Assembly: GCA_965649265.1 (NCBI GenBank) | Contig: CBFGKC010000002.1 | Coordinates: 142,921 to 206,920 of the forward strand | DNA from: a candidate division WOR-3 bacterium | GTDB lineage: Bacteria; Hydrothermota; Tepidihabitantia; B3-TA06 | Direction of reading: 5' to 3' | Length of the DNA stretch: 64,000 bases | In this document: piece by piece, positions 51,868-62,034 of the stretch | Position numbering within the stretch: the stretch's first letter is position 1 | Layout of the letters: every line of letters begins with the position of its first letter | Position numbers and translations under genes: made by a program | Notes under the pieces: model-generated | The model's database searches: none | Told to the model about the DNA's origin: nothing | Seen by the model: only the letters and a program-made list of their open reading frames with translations

Positions 51868-52763
51868 AGTACACGATACCCGAACAGGAGATTATGTGCT
51901 CCGGACACAAGGCCTGCCAGGGCTGCGGCGCCGCCCACGCCATGCGCTTCGCCCTCAAGGCACTGGGACCAAAGACCGTTCTCGCCATTCCCGCTTGCTG
52001 CTGGGCGGTGATTGACGGCCCCTTCCCCTACTCGTCGGTGGGCGTGCCATTGTTCCACTGCGCGTTCGAGACCGCGGCCGTGACCGCATCAGGCATCCGC
52101 GCCGGGCTCGACATGCGCGGCGAGACCGACGTCAACGTGGTGGCATGGGCCGGCGACGGCGGAACCTTCGACATCGGCATCCAGTCGCTCTCTGGAACGG
52201 TGGAACGCAACGACAACATCATCTACATCTGCTACGACAACGAGGCCTACATGAACACGGGTGTCCAGCGCTCGTCATCTACCCCCTGGGGGGCCGTGAC
52301 CTCGACGACGCCTCCGCGCCACTTCAAGCAAGAGCGCAAGAAGGACATGATGGCCATCATGGCCGCGCACGGCATTCCCTACACCGCCTCGGCCTCCATA
52401 GCCTATCCGGAGGATTTCATCAAGAAGATAAAGAAGGCGATGGCGACAAAGGGCGCAAAGTTCATACATGTGCTTGCCACCTGTCCCCCCGGCTGGCGTT
52501 CCTCGCCGGAGCTTTCCATCCAGCTTGCGAAGCTTGCGGTTCAAACGCACGTATTCCCGCTGTACGAGATATACGAAGGGAAATACTACAAGTTCTCCAT
52601 GGACCCGGAGAAGAAGCCGATTACCGAGTACATGAAGCCGCAGGGCCGCTTCCGCCATCTGACGGAGGAACAGGTAAAGGACCTGGACCGTCAGGTTGAC
52701 GAGCGCTACGCATGGCTCAAGGAGCTTGCCGAACGCTCCAAGCCCTGGTTCGAGAAACAGTAG
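51864..52763 (+). CDS. porB: 2-oxoacid:ferredoxin oxidoreductase beta subunit
   Basis: ACQGC, GDGG..DNEAYMNTG TPP motif, TCP. Confidence 0.93.
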   Translation: MKYTIPEQEIMCSGHKACQGCGAAHAMRFALKALGPKTVLAIPACCWAVIDGPFPYSSVGVPLFHCAFETAAVTASGIRAGLDMRGETDVNVVAWAGDGGTFDIGIQSLSGTVERNDNIIYICYDNEAYMNTGVQRSSSTPWGAVTSTTPPRHFKQERKKDMMAIMAAHGIPYTASASIAYPEDFIKKIKKAMATKGAKFIHVLATCPPGWRSSPELSIQLAKLAVQTHVFPLYEIYEGKYYKFSMDPEKKPITEYMKPQGRFRHLTEEQVKDLDRQVDERYAWLKELAERSKPWFEKQ

Positions 52764-52775
52764 TAATTTTAATTT

Positions 52776-52810
52776 AAGAGAAAAGCCCGGACATGCCGGG
52801 CTTTTCTCTT
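52776..52810. terminator. Bidirectional intrinsic terminator
   Basis: AAGAGAAAAGCCCGG-acatg-CCGGGCTTTTCTCTT. Confidence 0.85.
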
Positions 52811-52822
52811 TGAAACATTTAA

Positions 52823-53356
52823 CTAAGAAAACAGAAGTCTTTGGTTTGCTGTAAGAATTGAGATATTAAAAACCCTAAAATCAGCGTCATGCGTAACAAA
52901 TTTGAAGTCCTTGTTCTTGCATATTTCGGCTAAGATTTGGTCATTAAAATCACATAGCTTGCTTTCGTAATCGACCAAGAGTGTATTAAAATCTATCAAT
53001 TCAAAGCAACTGTCAGTACGAGCACAATCTTTCAAAATACGTTTGCAGGCATCAACTATACTTTTTGCTATCGGGACAAAATCCTCACTCTGACGGTATT
53101 GCTTAAAATCGTCACTAGTTCCAGCTAAGTTGTAATGGAACCTTGCATACCGATTAATGAATTCTGAAAGTACCAAAATATCTATATATATTTTGCTCTT
53201 GGCTGTAAGTATCTTTGCTAAGGCCGAAGAATACGCTTTTGAACGCTTATCTTCGGGATCGGTTGGTCCGTAAATGAAATACCATATATTGGCGTCAAAA
53301 AAGAGCGAATCGTTAATTGAGAAGGAATATTTCTTGATATCAATTTTCCTGTCCAT
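52823..53356 (-). CDS. PIN-domain ribonuclease
   Basis: Acidic residues in FFDANIW, LSEFIN, DFNDQI and VTHDADF. Confidence 0.85.
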   Translation of the reverse strand: MDRKIDIKKYSFSINDSLFFDANIWYFIYGPTDPEDKRSKAYSSALAKILTAKSKIYIDILVLSEFINRYARFHYNLAGTSDDFKQYRQSEDFVPIAKSIVDACKRILKDCARTDSCFELIDFNTLLVDYESKLCDFNDQILAEICKNKDFKFVTHDADFRVFNISILTANQRLLFS

Positions 53357-53711
53357 TATTGCCCACTCCTAATACCTTGTTTTCGGATCGTTTGAATCTT
53401 TCGGGATCTTTAAAATACTCCTTAGCCGTGTCTACTACTCTTTTGAGAAGTACTAGATCATCTTGCTCCATATCTATTACCGAAAGACCAGCTCTAATCT
53501 TTTCCTCGGTAAATTCGCCGTAGAGTTGCCCTATAGCTGCATTAAGGAAAGCCGAAGTAAGACTTTCCACGTTCAAAAAAGAAAGTTTCACCGCACGTCC
53601 TTCCCGTAGGGTCGAAGCTATCTGGTCGTGTACCTTCTGTCCATCTTCAGACGCTACACAGAGTTCGTTTCCTACAACCTCAAAAACCTTTATAATGATT
53701 TCGTCAGGCAT
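53340..53711 (-). CDS. STAS-like (DUF4325) protein
   Basis: 'DGQKV..I...V.LSF.NVESLTSAFLNAAIGQLY'; AAGGAAGGAG RBS before ATG 53711. Confidence 0.82.
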   Translation of the reverse strand: MPDEIIIKVFEVVGNELCVASEDGQKVHDQIASTLREGRAVKLSFLNVESLTSAFLNAAIGQLYGEFTEEKIRAGLSVIDMEQDDLVLLKRVVDTAKEYFKDPERFKRSENKVLGVGNNGQEN

Positions 53712-53728
53712 AGCGCTCCTTCCTTTGG

Positions 53729-54598
53729 TTAAAAAATATCCTCCGGACTGATTTCCGATTTTAGGCAATACGATTTTTTATCAGCCGTGTTAATTTCAAT
53801 ATTCACGACCGTCCCAGGGAAAGGGTTGACAAAAGATTTTGTCGAAACTTTTCCATTAGACAATTCCCAATATCCCTTATCTGAAACAATTTGAATACGA
53901 CCACTATTTTTGCTTATAAATTCTTGAAGAAGTTTTAATCCTAAACCACCTGGAATCTTGCCAGTCTTGGTCGTGTTTCCACTTGCCGCCCACACAATAG
54001 CGCCTTCAGGAGATAAATCTAACCTCTTTCTTCTCATAATATTACTACGAATGCCTATTCCTAAATCAGCAATGGAAAAATCTATTCTGTTTTTCTTCGG
54101 AAATACCTGCCCACAAGAAAAAATACCTAATTGAGTCTCCGAGTGTGTGACCGCATTGTTAAATATCTCAAAAATACTTTCTCTGAATTTCTTAAGCAGA
54201 CCAATAGACATCCTTGGAATACCCTTTCTTTTAATCAAACCTACTTCAATATAATTTCCAAAGTATCGTCCATCGTAAGTGTCAAATTTCTTGTATTCTA
54301 TTGTAGTCCCATATGTATCCTGCCTTTGTTTTCTTCCGTAAGCACTTAAAAATCCGTTTTTGGAGAGTATAGACTCTACATCTTTTCTAAAATTCACAAG
54401 CTCAACAATGTTCACATTTCGACTTACACTGTATAATATCGCGCCCAGAGGGGCGCACATATTGGCATCAAACCAAAATACTTTTGACATATCTATCTCT
54501 ATAACTTCAAATTCACATTCACTTGTTTCAGCAAACAATCTGATTAAGCTGCTAAATCCGTCGTAGTCACTGCGGATGTTGTTTAAAGATATTCTCAC
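53729..54598 (-). CDS. GHKL/HATPase (anti-sigma-kinase-like) with N-terminal STAS-like domain
   Basis: N-box EIFNNAVTHS, G1 ADLGIGI, G2 GGLGL, G3 PGT; N-terminal 'IDMSKVFWFD'. Confidence 0.82.
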   Translation of the reverse strand: MRISLNNIRSDYDGFSSLIRLFAETSECEFEVIEIDMSKVFWFDANMCAPLGAILYSVSRNVNIVELVNFRKDVESILSKNGFLSAYGRKQRQDTYGTTIEYKKFDTYDGRYFGNYIEVGLIKRKGIPRMSIGLLKKFRESIFEIFNNAVTHSETQLGIFSCGQVFPKKNRIDFSIADLGIGIRSNIMRRKRLDLSPEGAIVWAASGNTTKTGKIPGGLGLKLLQEFISKNSGRIQIVSDKGYWELSNGKVSTKSFVNPFPGTVVNIEINTADKKSYCLKSEISPEDIF

Positions 54599-54637
54599 TT
54601 TTTAACCTTAAGGGGATTGACCTCAAACACGAAACTA

Positions 54638-54722
54638 AGTCTAGTCAACTTAATGATGGTGTCAAGAGAAAGCTGGCTTCATTTTCAATTCCTCTTGACA
54701 AGGATTATTCTAACGCTATACT
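54638..54722. promoter_or_regulatory. Back-to-back divergent sigma70 promoters
   Basis: Minus TTGACA-16-TAGACT at 54665-54638; plus TTGACA-16-TATACT at 54695-54722. Confidence 0.6.
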
Positions 54723-54863
54723 GATATCGTCGGCAGTATGATTCTGAGGACAGGCTTTTTGGGCTTTATTGACTAAACAGGAGGAACACGAAAGTGAGAG
54801 GAGAAATCTCGAAAGTAATAGTAAGAAATAAAGGTATGGTTAGAGGCACCCAAGGAAAGTTTA

Positions 54864-56366
54864 ATGGACGACGATAAGAACAAGGATCTTGAGAAGAGGA
54901 TAGCGGAACTTGGGGAGGAGGGTGAAGAGGGTAAAAAGAAGGTTGAGCTTCTCAACGAGCTGGCCTCGAACGTTCACCGCAAGGATCCGGAGCAGGCCGA
55001 GAGGCTCGGCCTCGAGGCACTGGCTATAGCCGAAAAGCTCGGGGCCAGGACCTGGATAGCCGCGAGTTCCAGGATGATAGGAACCGCTCACCTCATGCGC
55101 GGCAACTTCGAGACGGCGCTCGAGCGCTTCACGACCGCGCTCGAGATATTCGAGGAGTTGGGTGACGAGAAGGGTGCCGCCTCCGCAAGGCTCAACATGG
55201 GCAACGTCTACCAGAACTTCAACAAACACGACCAGGCTCTCAAGTACTACAATATAGTTCTCGGGTTCTACGAGGGGATCACAGACAAGCAGGGACGAGC
55301 GACCGTTTTGAACAACATGGGCGTAAGCTTCATGGCACAGGGCGACCTCGACGAAGCGCTCGAGACTTACAGAAAGGCCCTCAAATTGTACGAGGAACTG
55401 GATTTCAAACCAGGCATCGCCTACTCTAACGGCAACATCGCAACCATCTATTTGAAGCAGGAAAAGCTCGAGAAGGCACTCGAAAGCTACCTTGCCGCGG
55501 AGAAGATCTTCGAGGAGCTTGCCGACAAGCGCAGCCTCAACATAAGTTCGATATACGTGGGAAGCCTTTACACAAAACTCGGCGATTTCGATAAGGCACT
55601 CGCGACGCTGGAGAAGGCAAAGAGGATTTCGAAAGAGATAGGCGCAAGGGACATGGAGATGGCCTCTCACCTTTTCCTTTCGGAGATGTACGAGGCGAAA
55701 GAGGACTTCGAGCAGGCCCTTGAGAATTACAAGAAGTACAGCGAAATCAACGGAAAAATCTTCAGCGAGGACAACGAGAAAAGGGTAACACAGCTGAGGG
55801 TAAAATACGAGAGCGAACGGAAGGTAAGGGAGATAGAGATATTCAAGTCGAAAACAGAGGAACTCGAGAGAGAGGTCAGGGACAGAACGGCGGAACTCGA
55901 GAACCGGCTCGCCGATCGCAGACGGGTGGAGGACGAATTAAAGGAAAAGCTCTCACTCATCAACAAGCAGCAGGCGGCCATATTCGAGCTCTCCACGCCC
56001 ATAATAAGGATATGGGAGGGGGTGCTGGTCGTACCGCTGATAGGCGTGCTCGATACGGCCAGGGCGGAGCACTTCACCGAGGAGCTGCTTGCTTCCATCA
56101 AGGCAACCCAGTCGAGGGTGGCGATAATAGACATCACGGGCGTGCCTTCGGTGGACTCATCGGTGGCGAATCATCTGCTGAAGACGGTCGAGTCGGTGAG
56201 ACTCCAGGGTGCCAGGTGCGTGGTAACCGGCATCAGACCGGAGGTCGCGCAGACCATCATACACCTCGGAATAGACATCTCTGAACTGAAGACGACGGCC
56301 AATCTGGCATCGGGTCTGGTATGGGCTTTCAGAAGAATCGGTGAAAGGGGTTTTGCTAATGCCTGA
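54864..56366 (+). CDS. TPR + coiled coil + RsbR-type STAS protein
   Basis: Multiple TPRs; 'ELSTPIIRIWEGVLVVPLIGVLDTARA..IDITGVPSVDSSVA..TGIRPEVAQT..LGID'. Confidence 0.88.
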   Translation: MDDDKNKDLEKRIAELGEEGEEGKKKVELLNELASNVHRKDPEQAERLGLEALAIAEKLGARTWIAASSRMIGTAHLMRGNFETALERFTTALEIFEELGDEKGAASARLNMGNVYQNFNKHDQALKYYNIVLGFYEGITDKQGRATVLNNMGVSFMAQGDLDEALETYRKALKLYEELDFKPGIAYSNGNIATIYLKQEKLEKALESYLAAEKIFEELADKRSLNISSIYVGSLYTKLGDFDKALATLEKAKRISKEIGARDMEMASHLFLSEMYEAKEDFEQALENYKKYSEINGKIFSEDNEKRVTQLRVKYESERKVREIEIFKSKTEELEREVRDRTAELENRLADRRRVEDELKEKLSLINKQQAAIFELSTPIIRIWEGVLVVPLIGVLDTARAEHFTEELLASIKATQSRVAIIDITGVPSVDSSVANHLLKTVESVRLQGARCVVTGIRPEVAQTIIHLGIDISELKTTANLASGLVWAFRRIGERGFANA

Positions 56367-57936
56367 GGACAAGGTAAAGGCGCTCGAAGCCCGGCTGGCT
56401 CTCCTTGAAGAAAAAATCCTTAAGGAAGACGGGGACGAGGTCCTCGAAGAATCACGAAGTGGTTCTCTGGGGCAAAAGGACGGTGTCCCCGGAGAATTAA
56501 GGAGTGATTCTCTGGAGCAAGAGATTGCCGACATCCTGAACGAACTCGCCTTCGCAAGTTACTCGAACGATCTCGAGAAAACCAGGGAGTACTCGGCCAG
56601 GGCGATAGCGCTCGCGGAGAAGACTGACTACCTCATGGGTCAGGCAAAGGGGCACCGCACGATGGGAATCTACCACTGGCTGAAGGGCGATTTCGACAAG
56701 GCGCTGGAATGCTCGCTCCGCTCGCTTGAAATATCGGAGAGGATGGGCGATGAAAACGGCCGGGCCGCAAGCTTCAACAACATGGGCCTCATATACATGA
56801 ATCTCTCGAAACCCGACCTTGCGCGCGAGAATCACCTGAAGGCCGCGGAGATTTTTGAGAAGGTCGGAAACAGGCAGTCGCAGGGCAAGGCGCTGACTAA
56901 CATAGGCGTCATCTGCGAGGCACAGGGCGATTATCGAGAAGCCCTGAAATACCTCTTGAAGAGCCTTGCGATTTACGAGCAGCTCGGAAGCTACGGTGAT
57001 CTTTCGGGCTGTTACTCATACATAGGCAACTGCTACAAGGGGCTCGGTCAGTACGACAAGGCTCTGGAACATTTCCTCATCGCGCTCGAGAAAGCCCGGA
57101 AGAGCGCGAGCAAGCTTGACACCGTTATCGCTTGCAAGGGCATAGGTTCCCTTTACACGAAAACCGGCGAGTACGAGAAAGCCCTCGAACATCTTGAAAA
57201 AGGGCTTGCGCTTGCCGGTGAGCTGAAGTCAAACCACCAGGAGCTTTCGATATTCCGACTCATGGTCGAACTCTGCGAGCAAAGCAAGGATTTTCGCAGC
57301 GCCCTCGGATATTTCAAGAAGATGAAAGAGCTCGAATCGAAGATCTTCTCCGACGAGAACAACAAGAAGATAGAGCAGATGCAGGCCAAATACGAGACCG
57401 AACAAAGAGAGAAGGAAGCCCAGATATACAGGCAGAAGAACGAAGAACTCGAAAGGATGGTTGAGGAGCGCACCTTGGAACTCGAGAAGGAGCTTGCGGA
57501 ACGCTCCAAGATCGAGGAAGAGCTCAAGGAGAAGCTTAAGCTCATCGAACGGCAGCAGGCGGCGATCACGGAGTTGTCAACCCCAATAATCAAGGTATGG
57601 GAAGGGGTCCTGGTGGTTCCGTTGGTAGGTGTTTTGGATTCTTCAAGAACCCGGCGCTTCACCGAGGAGCTTTTGTCAGCAATAAACGCGACACAGTCGA
57701 GGATTGCCATGGTGGACATCACGGGCGTGCCGACAGTTGACTCGTCGGTGGCCAACCATCTCCTGAAGACGATGGAATCGGTAAGACTCCAGGGCGCGCA
57801 CTGCATAGTTACCGGCATAAGGCCTGAGGTGGCGCAGACCATAATACATCTCGGGATAGACGTGGAGGGGCTCAAAACGATGTCGAGCCTTGCCGACGGC
57901 CTCAAGTGGGCTTTCTCGAAAATCGCCACGAGCTAA
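56359..57936 (+). CDS. Second TPR + coiled coil + RsbR-type STAS protein
   Basis: Same architecture as the preceding gene with a closely similar STAS domain. Confidence 0.88.
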   Translation: MPEDKVKALEARLALLEEKILKEDGDEVLEESRSGSLGQKDGVPGELRSDSLEQEIADILNELAFASYSNDLEKTREYSARAIALAEKTDYLMGQAKGHRTMGIYHWLKGDFDKALECSLRSLEISERMGDENGRAASFNNMGLIYMNLSKPDLARENHLKAAEIFEKVGNRQSQGKALTNIGVICEAQGDYREALKYLLKSLAIYEQLGSYGDLSGCYSYIGNCYKGLGQYDKALEHFLIALEKARKSASKLDTVIACKGIGSLYTKTGEYEKALEHLEKGLALAGELKSNHQELSIFRLMVELCEQSKDFRSALGYFKKMKELESKIFSDENNKKIEQMQAKYETEQREKEAQIYRQKNEELERMVEERTLELEKELAERSKIEEELKEKLKLIERQQAAITELSTPIIKVWEGVLVVPLVGVLDSSRTRRFTEELLSAINATQSRIAMVDITGVPTVDSSVANHLLKTMESVRLQGAHCIVTGIRPEVAQTIIHLGIDVEGLKTMSSLADGLKWAFSKIATS

Positions 57937-58165: not shown

Positions 58166-58353
58166 TACTACCTCAGTCCCCTCTTTGGAGAATAACCTTG
58201 CGATACGAAATCTGCGTAAGACCACGGAAGTCCATTGAGATCATGCGCCTCCGGAGAGTTATGTGCATTTTTTCCGGAAAGTGCTTGACACTCGCTTAAG
58301 TTTTTTTATTCTTACGTAGAACGAAACAGAAGATGTTGAAGAGGAGTATTAGT

Positions 58354-58761
58354 ATGAAAAGAAACTGCCTGATTCTTTTTCCCGTGCTTTTAATCTGTAT
58401 TGCCCAACTCTCCTGCAGCACGGCGAACGACGCCCTGATGACGGTCGAGATTACGGAGCAGCCTGCGGGCGGCGCTTACGTGGATTATCTCTCGTGCAGC
58501 TTCAGGGCCAATCTCGAGGATATAAATACGGAGAACATCGTCGAACCATCGGTCATCTTGACCGCCCGGTGGATGACAGATAAAGGCGTTCACGAAACAT
58601 CGAGATACGACATCCCGACGGGCACGAGTAACCTCAGGACCGAAATTATCCCGCCCGAGGGTATGTATTTCGACAAGACCTTCTGGATGCGACTCACATG
58701 GAAGGATTCCGAGGGTGAGCATACCCTGGAATCAAACAAAGCATCCTGCATCGTGCCCTGA
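58354..58761 (+). CDS. Hypothetical lipoprotein, paralog A
   Basis: Lipobox-like LSC; C-terminus DKTFW..W.DS.G.H..ES.KASCIVP. Confidence 0.75.
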   Translation: MKRNCLILFPVLLICIAQLSCSTANDALMTVEITEQPAGGAYVDYLSCSFRANLEDINTENIVEPSVILTARWMTDKGVHETSRYDIPTGTSNLRTEIIPPEGMYFDKTFWMRLTWKDSEGEHTLESNKASCIVP

Positions 58762-58787
58762 AGCCGGATGTAAGATAAGGAGAAGAC

Positions 58788-59246
58788 ATGTTTTTGAGGA
58801 AAAACCTGCGGAGAGCGATTTTGCCGCTTCTGGCAGCGCTTTTCGTGATCGTTTTCGAGGGGTCTGACTGCTACGGTCCGATAGTGAAAAGTTACATAAG
58901 CGGACTCGAGTTCACCAGCCAGCCGCAGGGTGGAAGCTACGTGCAAACGCTTTCGTGCACGTTCGTCGTTTCGAGCGACGCCACGGCGGCGGAACCGGAC
59001 AAGGTGCCTCAGAACGGCGACATAACCATAAGGATCGCATGGAAGACGGACGAAAAGACCCATGACGTCGAGACGAAAAAAATCCCCTGGGTTCTGAACG
59101 AAACGACGTACACGACCGTTACCACCACTTTCTCCGCACCCGAGGGTTACTATCTCGATAAAACGTTCTGGGTGGAAGTCAGCTGGACCGACTCAGGCGG
59201 CGACCATATCAAGGAGAGCGAAAAGGCATCCTGCATTGTTCCATAA
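58788..59246 (+). CDS. Hypothetical exported/lipoprotein, paralog B
   Basis: Same motifs as paralog A; AGGAG RBS. Confidence 0.75.
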   Translation: MFLRKNLRRAILPLLAALFVIVFEGSDCYGPIVKSYISGLEFTSQPQGGSYVQTLSCTFVVSSDATAAEPDKVPQNGDITIRIAWKTDEKTHDVETKKIPWVLNETTYTTVTTTFSAPEGYYLDKTFWVEVSWTDSGGDHIKESEKASCIVP

Positions 59247-59359
59247 GTTTCGCTGATAAATGAGAAAGGAACGCCCTGGCGTTCCTTTCATCGAGCTTGA
59301 CCTGGAGGTTTTTAGTCAAGTGCCAGCGAGTTGCTTAAAAAACTCAAGAAGACAATTGG

Positions 59360-59484
59360 AAGCGAAGAAGGCGGCTCCTCCTGTTGAGCCGCCTTCAGCT
59401 CAGGCTTGGAGAAATATAACTCTGAGAGCCCGTGTGATCTGCTCCAAGCCCTCCTCATTATCTATATCTATCCAAATTGTCTAC
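59360..59484 (-). ncRNA. Candidate sigma54-dependent small RNA
   Basis: Two stems (59403-59450 and 59367-59396) downstream of the sigma54 site. Confidence 0.45.
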
Positions 59485-59494
59485 TAAAATAATA

Positions 59495-59511
59495 AGCAAC
59501 TATCGTGCCAA
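59495..59511 (-). promoter_or_regulatory. sigma54 promoter
   Basis: TTGGCAC-GATAG-TTGCT consensus match. Confidence 0.75.
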
Positions 59512-59706
59512 TTTGTGGTCGAGAATCAAGTGTTATCAAAACGTGAGATATTTTTTCGTGTGAGAGGATTGTACGTATTCAGGATGTTTTCGAAAACGGC
59601 AAGGTGCACTAAAAAGCTACAGTATTATGAGTCTGAATTCAGACCAAATCACCCTACCGGGTTTTTCGAGTAAAGGGGGAGGGGGTATCGGGATGGTTGT
59701 GGTCAA

Positions 59707-59735
59707 CAAAAAGGGGCGGGGGTACCCGCCCCTGA
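59707..59735 (-). terminator. Intrinsic terminator (second copy at about 60261-60285)
   Basis: AGGGGCGGG-ggta-CCCGCCCCT with an adjacent T-run. Confidence 0.75.
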
Positions 59736-59748
59736 TTCAAACTTTCTG

Positions 59749-60150
59749 TTATTCGCCGGATGTTGAATACATCGTTCCAAATTGAAAGGGATTACTATTC
59801 GGGTTACTCCAGGTTCCATATACTGTATCTACAGTATCAGCTCTAACGGTTCCCCAGATATGTCCTCCCGTGTCTGCGGCACCCATAATAAACCAGTGAC
59901 CTTGAAAAGATGTGTCGCTGACAGAAGCATTAAACCAACCTTCAACTTGAGCACTGACGTCTACCCAAGTTCCCGTAAACTGTGAGCCATCCAGCGTACC
60001 CGACCAAACTTCAAAAGGGTAAGTGGTTGGATTTATGGAGCCGGTACCTGCACCATCATAGTTTGTGGTCGCCATGAGTATGGTGGACCCCACCATGAAG
60101 CTTACAACAAGCAAGCTTATGGCAGTAAGGATAATGCTATTCTTTTTCAT
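59749..60150 (-). CDS. Secreted 133-aa Gly/Trp beta-rich protein, paralog 3
   Basis: Signal peptide, FxGxW repeats, AAGGAG RBS. Confidence 0.8.
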   Translation of the reverse strand: MKKNSIILTAISLLVVSFMVGSTILMATTNYDGAGTGSINPTTYPFEVWSGTLDGSQFTGTWVDVSAQVEGWFNASVSDTSFQGHWFIMGAADTGGHIWGTVRADTVDTVYGTWSNPNSNPFQFGTMYSTSGE

Positions 60151-60314
60151 TTCGTACTCCTTTACGTTTTAGGTTTTTTAGTTTTTCAGGGAGTCCTGTC
60201 TTTCCCTTTTTTGCCCTCTCTTTTGCGAAGGATAATGTGCATTCTGACCTTAAGCCCGGAGGGGCGGGGGTACCCGCCCCTTTTTGTTTAATTATTACAT
60301 TCACCTATAACTCA

Positions 60315-60716
60315 TTAATGGTGTTCATGGTCGAATGTCCAAAAGCTACCAAAGTTTGTCGGGTTATTTTTCGGGTTGGACCACGTCCCGTAAGCCGTAT
60401 CGGAGTTGATATATCCTGATATATGTCCCGAGGTATCATATGAGGCATCTGAAAACCAATGACCTTGAAAGGTGGTGCCTGAAACCACAGCACTGAACGT
60501 ACCCGTATTTGAGTTATCATCGCGCCATTGACCAGTGAAAGTCCCGGCAGGATTGCCGAAACAACCACTCCAATATGCGAATGGGAAGAAGCTCGAACCT
60601 ATTTGACCGTCGCCATAACCCCAGAAGTTAGTGTATCCGTACACAAGGCTGGAGCCCAGCATAAGGCTTACGACAAGTAAACCTATTGTGATAAGGACGC
60701 GGTTATTTTTACGCAT
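60315..60716 (-). CDS. Secreted 133-aa Gly/Trp beta-rich protein, paralog 2
   Basis: Same features; own TTGACA-16-TACAAT promoter. Confidence 0.8.
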   Translation of the reverse strand: MRKNNRVLITIGLLVVSLMLGSSLVYGYTNFWGYGDGQIGSSFFPFAYWSGCFGNPAGTFTGQWRDDNSNTGTFSAVVSGTTFQGHWFSDASYDTSGHISGYINSDTAYGTWSNPKNNPTNFGSFWTFDHEHH

Positions 60717-60984
60717 TTTATACTCCTTTTTGGTTGGTTTAGATTTTCAAGGGAATCCTGTTTTTCCCTTTTTACCCTCTTCGTAAATATTGTAATAAAA
60801 AAGTATTCTTTGTCAAGTATATTGCGGCATAAAAAATGTTTTTTTAGAACGATGAATCCTCGACTCTTCTGTTTGTCGATTAATCCTTTAAGCGACCAAA
60901 GTTTCTCACGCTTCCCGTAAGGCCCCAAAAAACGGAGGAGCGGGTTTCCGCTCCTCCTTGAATATTTAGATCTGTTGGTGATTA

Positions 60985-61386
60985 TTAGTCTTTGGTTCCG
61001 CTCCAAGTTCCGTTGCTTGGCCCAGACCAGGTTCCGCCGCAGGTATCTACGTTGAAGTTAAAATACATAAAGCAGTTACCAGCGTCACGATCCAATTCAC
61101 TCCATCTCCAAGTGCCGGTAAAATAATAAACGCCCAACCAGTTTCTACAAATGAAAGAACCACTATTACCTAGGGTATCGCTCCATGTGCCTGAAAAAAC
61201 GTTAGGGGAAACACCTGTGTTTATGGTTCCCTGCCAGTTCTGGAAGGGGTATATGGTTGTGCTGGAATCTGGAACCCATACGCCTGTTCCCGTACCAGAC
61301 CAGTCGCTGTTTGCCATAAGCGGGGATACACCCGCGACGAACATCAGCGCAAAAACGCCGACAAGAAGAACTGATGCCTTACGCAT
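60985..61386 (-). CDS. Secreted 133-aa Gly/Trp beta-rich protein, paralog 1
   Basis: Same features; own TTGACG-16-TATAAT promoter and a terminator at about 60934-60957. Confidence 0.8.
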   Translation of the reverse strand: MRKASVLLVGVFALMFVAGVSPLMANSDWSGTGTGVWVPDSSTTIYPFQNWQGTINTGVSPNVFSGTWSDTLGNSGSFICRNWLGVYYFTGTWRWSELDRDAGNCFMYFNFNVDTCGGTWSGPSNGTWSGTKD

Positions 61387-61614
61387 CGCTGCTCCTTTTT
61401 GGTTAAGTTTTTTGTGATTTCCGGGGTATCCTGTCGTCCCCCGCTTTGCCCATACGTATATATTATAAATAAAGACTTATACACGTCAAGTTAACAACGT
61501 CAAAATAAGCGGTTCTTTGCTAAACGGGGATGATAACCTACCTACCCGTCTTAGTATAGAAGTCCGGATTCAGACCGGCTTGACAAACGCGTGCATGAAT
61601 CCTAGAATACCCTT

Positions 61615-62034
61615 GTCAGGTGGGCCGGGCGTTCGCTCTTTCGAATAGAAGGAGAGGAAAGTCCGAACTCCACAGGGCAGGGTGCCGGCTAACGACCGGA
61701 AGGAGCGATCCTTGAAAAGTGCCACAGAGAACAGACCGCCCAAGCGTCCGGGAAACCGGACGACGGCAAGGGTGAAACGGTGCGGTAAGAGCGCACCGCC
61801 CTTCCGGCAACGGAAGGGGCACGGTAAACTCCACCCGGAGCAAGGCCAAGCAGTAGGTATAGATTGCCCGTCTAAAGGTTGTGCTTCGTTCCCCGACAAT
61901 CGGACTCCGTTCGATTGTCGGCGGGGTTCGGCGCAGCCGAAACCTACGGGTAGGCTGCAAGAGGCCCGCGGCAACGCGATGGCCCAAGATAAATGAACGC
62001 ACCCGACAGAATTCGGCTTACAGGCCCACCTGAC
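61615..62034 (+). ncRNA. rnpB: RNase P RNA, type A
   Basis: GAGGAAAGTCCG, AGTGCCACAGA, GGTAAACTCCAC, ACAGAATTCGGCTTA; P1 GTCAGGTGGGCC/GGCCCACCTGAC; promoter TTGACA-17-TAGAAT. Confidence 0.97.

Follow-up and report, generated by a model that had tools for sequence, protein, structure and literature searches.

In the window, as we call the whole 64,000-nt stretch of DNA analysed here, three short genes of unusual base composition adjoin the end of the por operon. The preliminary description had read them as a SpoIIAB-like kinase, a STAS partner protein and an RNase gated by that partner, and had proposed a toxin or anti-phage system that was possibly new. The locus raises the questions of how the three genes came to lie where they do, whether they form such a switch and whether that switch is already known.

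Gene order, composition and insertion site

The three genes and the elements around them are listed in Table 1. The order vapK-vapS-vapC, by which membership of VapKSC is judged, is present. Each of the three frames is uninterrupted and of full length, and the catalytic residues are intact. A spacer of 17 nt separates vapK from vapS, and the start of vapC overlaps the stop of vapS by 17 nt, bearing out the earlier impression of three tightly packed genes. No second copy or divergent paralogue of the trio was found in the window's genome. The block has a GC content of 37.5%, compared with 51.3% genome-wide, and 7 of 5,397 equally long genome segments, some of which may overlap the trio itself, are as AT-rich. 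The GC contents of vapK, vapS and vapC are 0.36, 0.42 and 0.36 (GC3 of 0.32 to 0.38), while those of the three por genes measured are 0.59 to 0.61 (GC3 of 0.78 to 0.82), confirming that the trio is far more AT-rich than por.

Table 1. Positions in the window of the three genes and of elements at the edges of the insert
Feature	Positions	Strand	Description
Symmetric 15-bp hairpin	52776..52810	.	Separates the stops of the convergent genes porB and vapC; from sequence and folding
vapC	52823..53356	-	177 aa; PIN RNase toxin by homology; acidic set intact
vapS	53340..53711	-	123 aa; STAS antitoxin of family DUF4325, extended at the C-terminus; predicted phospho-acceptor, S53
vapK	53729..54598	-	289 aa; GTG start; STAS-like N-terminal domain and GHKL domain
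Sigma-70-like promoter candidate	54638..54665	-	40 nt upstream of vapK; 10/12 consensus matches
Promoter candidate of the divergent TPR-STAS genes	54695..54722 (within 54680-54810)	+	11/12 consensus matches; host element outside the system

The hairpin (-25.7 kcal/mol; z, -8.8; 0 of 200 shuffles as stable) is a probable bidirectional terminator, and it is absent from the list given by a consensus terminator scan. The claim that the trio is inserted right after the por terminator held in part: the site is this hairpin, but the genes lie on the opposite strand, are convergent with por and do not follow it in a read-through arrangement. Promoter- and RBS-like sequences lie upstream of the trio, in a region where sigma-70-like matches are no commoner than expected by chance (6 found, 4.8 expected).

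A genome of the same genus (G001) shows the site without the trio. There, a terminator comes after porB, and the TPR-STAS promoter lies about 130 nt farther on. This element aligns with the TPR-STAS promoter candidate of the window, which is the right edge of the insert, and between it and porB the window carries about 1.9 kb more than G001. No trio match was found in nine porB-flanking loci of family members, five of which reach only 1.5 kb past porB. Among 40 relatives, all of which have porB, one gave a kinase match, with 31% identity and at another site. The trio is a horizontally acquired insertion of about 1.9 kb at the terminator.

In run X1, which may share the window's sampling campaign, a 2,606-nt contig spans positions 52229 to 54834 with 83 differing letters, and a related strain therefore has the same insert junctions at the same site. 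No RNA run was among those listed, and runs X2 to X5 have only small shares. At least 40 of the 83 differences fall within 0.4 kb of porB, so that the insert is about 98% identical and the flanking pieces 91 to 95% identical; the higher identity of the insert may reflect its recent exchange between strains. A silent or decaying insert without present function would fit the patchy distribution (1 of 40 relatives) and the homologous loci in which the kinase is broken or lost. This reading is nevertheless very improbable, given three full-length frames with intact catalytic residues, the promoter- and RBS-like sequences and a related strain that has the insert in the identical place.

The neighbouring genes encode butyrate kinase, phosphotransbutyrylase, FabH, por and TPR-STAS proteins and small uncharacterised proteins. 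A search of the surroundings with PADLOC, suggested earlier as a check on a defence role, showed no defence setting for the window copy: the genes around it are housekeeping genes, and the matches for 18 neighbours were all generic ones (TPR, coiled-coil and aminotransferase). No defence system was found within about 10 kb, and the locus is not a defence island.

Beside the trio, at 54864 to 57936, are two tandem TPR-coiled-coil-STAS genes, whose products we take to be RsbR-like. The trio kinase might be part of a host partner-switching network and act on these neighbours, as they are divergent from the same intergenic region and the genome holds nine matches to the STAS domain of the TPR-STAS gene (five clustered on contig C8). 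We consider such cross-talk highly improbable because the TPR-STAS genes belong to the host backbone: G001 has the genes and the promoter but not the trio, and the GC content of these genes is host-like (0.54). The kinase, for its part, travels with DUF4325 and PIN genes across many phyla.

Farther from the trio, positions 58333 to 61386 encode five small uncharacterised proteins with signal-peptide-like starts, of which two, related to each other, are on the plus strand (142 and 152 aa), while those on the minus strand, three in number, are each 133 aa long; none has a Pfam match at 1e-5. The stretch at 61603 to 62033 looks non-coding and is 84% identical in G001, more conserved than the adjoining genes. 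We assume that its resemblance is to an RNase P RNA gene.

The three proteins compared with VapKSC

VapKSC was named, crystallised (PDB 9Z7O) and tested by Chambers et al. (EMBO J 2026, PMC13373217). According to that report, the operon encodes VapK (STAS and GHKL domains), VapS (a STAS domain plus a short region at the C-terminus) and VapC (PIN domain). The STAS protein of the window matched Pfam family DUF4325 (E 4e-16), and in a phmmer search its sole PDB match at E up to 1 was Escherichia VapS (9Z7O_A; E 5.2e-13), which the profile of its family reached at E 4.7e-28. S53 aligns with S48, the published phospho-site. The Thr-Ser pair had been put forward as the phosphorylated position; the Ser stands, while the preceding Thr aligns with Ala in Escherichia VapS and does not. 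The alignment to 9Z7O_A reaches query residue 111 and chain residue 123 of 134, and the profile alignment reaches profile position 114 of 116, so the C-terminal helical region beyond the STAS domain (94-116) appears to be present.

The PIN protein matched Pfam family PIN (E 1.8e-7), and its residues D21, E65, D136, D139, D157 and D159 are the same in all 57 aligned sequences; the full acidic set reported earlier, in a frame overlapping the STAS stop, was thus verified. A phmmer search of the PDB with the single sequence gave nothing significant and did not reach 9Z7O. With the PIN family profile, a search of 177,635 PDB sequences gave a single match below E 0.5. This was Escherichia VapC (9Z7O_C), at E 3.1e-12 and spanning positions 4-179, and D21 aligns with the catalytic D28 of that protein. 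The PIN model has a VapC-like fold with Foldseek matches to VapC proteins; among the entries shown (structures to April 2026), 9Z7O did not appear.

The kinase matched HATPase_c in Pfam below the curated cut-off (E 4.8e-4) and had no HisKA match. Support for its N-terminal STAS-like domain came from a profile search that matched TM1442, an anti-sigma antagonist (E 0.0038; profile positions 19-90), and its AlphaFold model (pLDDT 93.6) matched the folds of GHKL kinases and ATPases. N148, D178-G180, G218-G220 and G262-T263 do not vary among the 59 full-length homologues. These results agree with the initial reading of a STAS-like/GHKL ATPase with N and G boxes and no His-box. A two-component histidine kinase was considered and rejected, as there is no HisKA match, NCBIfam kinase scores lie far below cut-off and the operon has no receiver gene. 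No N-terminal HTH was found in the Pfam scan, and the model starts with the STAS fold. The PDB search with the single kinase sequence gave nothing significant, and the kinase and VapS profiles did not align to each other. The kinase is 35.7% identical (E 1e-39) to a protein of Deinococcus gobiensis I-0.

W42, N148 and K168/K169 correspond to F54, N160 and K180/K181 of VapK in a mapping made by eye via rows L089, L090 and L118 of alignment A2, bridging sequences that share the Escherichia motifs; the VapK sequence as printed in Table S2 is 5 residues shorter than the numbering used in the paper. W42, the putative ssDNA-stacking aromatic, and N148 of the N-box are each invariant in the 59 full-length kinases. 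Of the 59 homologues, 55 have Lys or Arg at position 169, and only 16 have Lys at position 168, the counterpart of one of two lysines modelled as contacting ssDNA. A search of E. coli genomes by DNA with the viral locus L089 for an enterobacterial VapK gave no match.

The closest relative of this switch is CapK/CapS, with the same kinase fold and Ser site, and W42 corresponds by eye to CapK W68. A CapKS-type transcriptional switch carrying the PIN gene as regulated cargo might look similar. Its probability is nonetheless close to nil: the 123-aa STAS protein lacks a winged helix, the kinase lacks an N-terminal HTH, and the PDB search matched the STAS protein to VapS and not to CapS structures. 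The CapKS and two-component readings both fail because the domain content contradicts them.

Judged by these alignments, the window trio is almost certainly a member of VapKSC. The suggestion that it might be a new system was not upheld, since the trio matches one already described (E 5.2e-13 for VapS and, by profile, 3.1e-12 for VapC). A scan with PADLOC 2023 and NCBIfam, neither of which holds a model for VapKSC, matched neither the STAS nor the PIN protein, and the kinase gave no more than a partial match to DrmA. Our literature search for VapKSC by name found Chambers et al. (2026) and its preprint only; other papers may exist.

Homologous loci and the loss of the kinase

Scanning genome contigs with the single PIN sequence found no relative. 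A PIN search gave 474 relatives, and a scan of the genome contigs with their alignment did find relatives, at 176 loci, of which the best 80, picked by PIN alone, were fetched. The STAS gene lies directly upstream of the PIN gene in all 80, and 69 of the 80 have a kinase match, 66 in the order K-S-C and 3 in the order S-C-K; 59 of the kinases are full length. The expected co-occurrence of the trio in other genomes was thus found among these best 80 of 176. The hosts span many phyla. The trio block is GC-poorer than its flanks in 73 of the 75 loci with enough flank. All 10 viral loci have a kinase match and 9 of 10 a STAS match.

Four loci (L019, L021, L061 and L079) carry homologous trios 44 to 66% identical to that of the window. 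Their genomes match rows of Dataset EV3 of the VapKSC paper by name, not by gene identifier (Nitrosomonas nitrosa Nm90, Zetaproteobacteria CG_4_9_14_3_um_filter_49_83, Poribacteria WGA-3G and isolate DeMMO2_3). D. gobiensis I-0, whose plasmid trio is 32 to 37% identical to the window's, is also a Dataset EV3 genome.

In 11 of the best 80 of 176 loci, VapS and VapC occur without a kinase (L053, L054, L055, L057, L059, L060, L064, L066, L067, L070 and L078). The kinase query had no match in the genomes of these loci, and the same query finds a 31% relative elsewhere. In a quick tree of the loci they fall, by our own grouping, into three separate groups: three loci including two from cyanobacteria, two Caldilineaceae beside a kinase-bearing sister, and six Poribacteria. 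All 11 keep the six acidic residues of the PIN protein. All 69 kinase-bearing loci have Ser or Thr as the acceptor, which is replaced in 4 of the 11 kinase-less loci (L057, L067, L070 and L078) of the same best 80 of 176. The association of acceptor loss with kinase absence (Fisher p 2e-4) is overstated because the four acceptor-less loci fall in two clades. As a natural experiment, the kinase-less pairs support the prediction of S53 as the phospho-site.

Several variants of the locus were seen. In L022, L025, L034, L039, L058 and L065 the kinase is split or shortened while STAS and PIN are whole; such loci may be stages on the way to losing the kinase, or may reflect faulty assembly. L005, L013 and L018, with the order vapS-vapC-vapK, form one well-supported clade of Thermodesulfobacteriota records. 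The Streptococcus phage Javan172 (L120:3114-7046) has kinase and DUF4325 genes without PIN, located between an HTH repressor/M78 peptidase pair and an integrase. The Francisella phage KIRK, in the material available on it, has a gene for a 293-aa uncharacterised protein and a DUF4325 gene at a similar place, a likeness solely of position. L118 (G009:C134:2002-3414), from the same family as the window, has a remote kinase-STAS pair (about 30% identity) at a different site, on a contig that stops before the PIN position.

The genes beside the homologous blocks were also surveyed. A DNA methyltransferase gene lies directly before the vapKSC block in 28 of the best 80 of 176 loci (by single queries, with related loci among them). 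The block lies ahead of a type III res gene in 18 of the 80 and between methyltransferase (mod) and res in 16; examples of the latter are L007, L017, L028, L036, L040, L048 and L072. A PADLOC survey of partial flank proteins, without a background control, gave matches at E up to 1e-25 for 18 of 146 proteins, spread over 17 of the 79 loci covered; one of the 18 is probably a housekeeping desulfurase. In L052, L059, L065 and L076, a PDC-M47A/PD-T4-4-like gene follows vapC directly.

A joint reading of these relatives, which we offer tentatively, is that VapK is a detachable ssDNA sensor on stand-alone STAS-PIN pairs. Kinase-less pairs would then be kinase-independent toxin-antitoxin systems with some other trigger. 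Conversely, kinase-STAS pairs lacking PIN lie in prophage lysogeny regions, and the large group of full operons placed between type III mod and res genes would be a possible restriction back-up. This reading concerns the relatives; the window copy is canonical. The published operon search was seeded with VapK and kept complete trios only, giving 289 operons, of which 103 (36%) lie within 10 kb of a PADLOC gene and 64% do not (PMC13373217). A term search of that paper's text turned up neither orphan pairs nor type III systems, which supplements or other papers may cover, and the kinase-less VapS-VapC pairs and the mod/res placement appear to be side observations beyond it.

Proposed mechanism, selected role and known systems

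For the Escherichia operon, VapC was reported to be toxic and D28A non-toxic. VapS and VapC form a 2:2 complex in which the interface buries S48 and the C-terminal helix of VapS is close to the active site, and deletion of this helix or S48E abolishes neutralisation. In the same report, VapK was insoluble and its activation by ssDNA was inferred from a model and from the loss of protection with F54A; ssDNA activation and W68 dependence are shown there biochemically only for CapK (PMC13373217).

By analogy, VapS of the window would in the resting state bind the VapC dimer (2:2) via its STAS face, burying S53, and its C-terminal helix would block the VapC active site. The trigger would be ssDNA from DNA damage or phage infection, which would bind VapK in the groove between the STAS and GHKL domains via W42. 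Activated VapK would phosphorylate S53 of VapS, a step suggested by the release of Escherichia VapC by the phospho-mimic S48E. Freed VapC would then cut cellular RNA, probably tRNA or rRNA, and growth would stop, limiting phage spread. The window operon is very probably an intact VapKSC toxin-antitoxin operon, with every mechanistic step assigned by homology, and we have similarly high confidence that the proposed ssDNA-VapK-VapS-VapC mechanism applies to this copy. The chain originally proposed, from SpoIIAB-like kinase through STAS to gated RNase in a toxin or anti-phage module, appears as such in the VapKSC report, where it is largely demonstrated (PMC13373217).

The selected role is less secure than the mechanism. 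The Escherichia operon protects against Bas42 by about 2 logs or under, and protection is lost with D28A, S48A and F54A; the authors' replies describe protection as weak and seen for five BASEL phages in an unreplicated screen of phages 14-69 (PMC13373217). The same proteins and switch might be selected for dormancy after DNA damage or for maintenance of a selfish insert, with phage protection a side effect. We retain this as a rival, albeit a rather unlikely one, because the window copy has housekeeping surroundings, without a defence system nearby, and the published protection is weak. The 64% of published operons without a PADLOC neighbour within 10 kb and the authors' remark that the boundary between defence and stress response is fuzzy (PMC13373217) point the same way, as does the persistence of VapS-VapC, active site intact, after loss of the kinase in 11 of the best 80 of 176 loci. 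Against it stand the abolition of Bas42 protection by each of the three substitutions (PMC13373217), the positions directly behind a DNA methyltransferase (28/80) or from mod to res (16/80) in the best 80 of 176 loci, the kinase match in 10/10 viral loci and the PADLOC matches of flank proteins (18/146, in 17/79 loci, without background control). Phage defence is, in our judgment, fairly likely to be the main selected role of the window copy.

As VapKSC was already named, crystallised and tested in 2026, the discovery value of the locus is little. The window copy extends VapKSC to another lineage and provides a clean empty-site example, a 1.9-kb insertion at a terminator. The clade offers many alternative VapK proteins that could serve ssDNA-activation biochemistry and the search for the VapC RNA target, which is of practical use because the published VapK is insoluble.

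In comparison with known systems, the trio shares with VapKSC its K-S-C order, sizes, STAS-GHKL kinase without HTH, VapS C-terminal extension and PIN toxin. Corresponding residues in the window and Escherichia copies are S53 and S48, D21 and D28, W42 and F54, and N148 and N160 (the kinase pairs by eye). It differs in being distant from the tested Escherichia copy, whose VapC was reached by profile only, in the ssDNA site of the kinase, where Trp takes the place of Phe, and in its setting, since por and TPR-STAS housekeeping genes flank it and none of its neighbours is a defence gene. These sequence comparisons showed no difference in kind from VapKSC. CapK/CapS, which regulates immune operons, likewise has a STAS-GHKL kinase, a conserved STAS serine and Trp at the ssDNA site, but CapK carries an N-terminal HTH and CapS a repressing winged helix (PMC13373217), both absent from the trio, whose output is a PIN RNase. 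SpoIIAB/SpoIIAA and RsbW/RsbV share the GHKL Ser kinase and the STAS serine at the same position (PMC13373217). As an explanation of the window operon, an anti-sigma switch was rejected: the operon has no sigma factor gene, and no sigma-factor family was found among 21 proteins scanned (about 42.8 to 63.6 kb). In addition, the window kinase carries its own STAS domain, and in a VapKSC-type switch phosphorylation releases a toxin. Coupling of PIN with DUF4325 was noted in 2017 as PIN.4, with function then open (Matelska et al., PMC5499597); the PIN.4 row mentions no kinase, and its likeness to the window PIN is by description only. Finally, classical VapBC type II toxin-antitoxin systems share the PIN-fold RNase toxin, as the fold matches to VapC proteins indicate, whereas the VapKSC antitoxin is not VapB but a folded STAS domain removed by phosphorylation.
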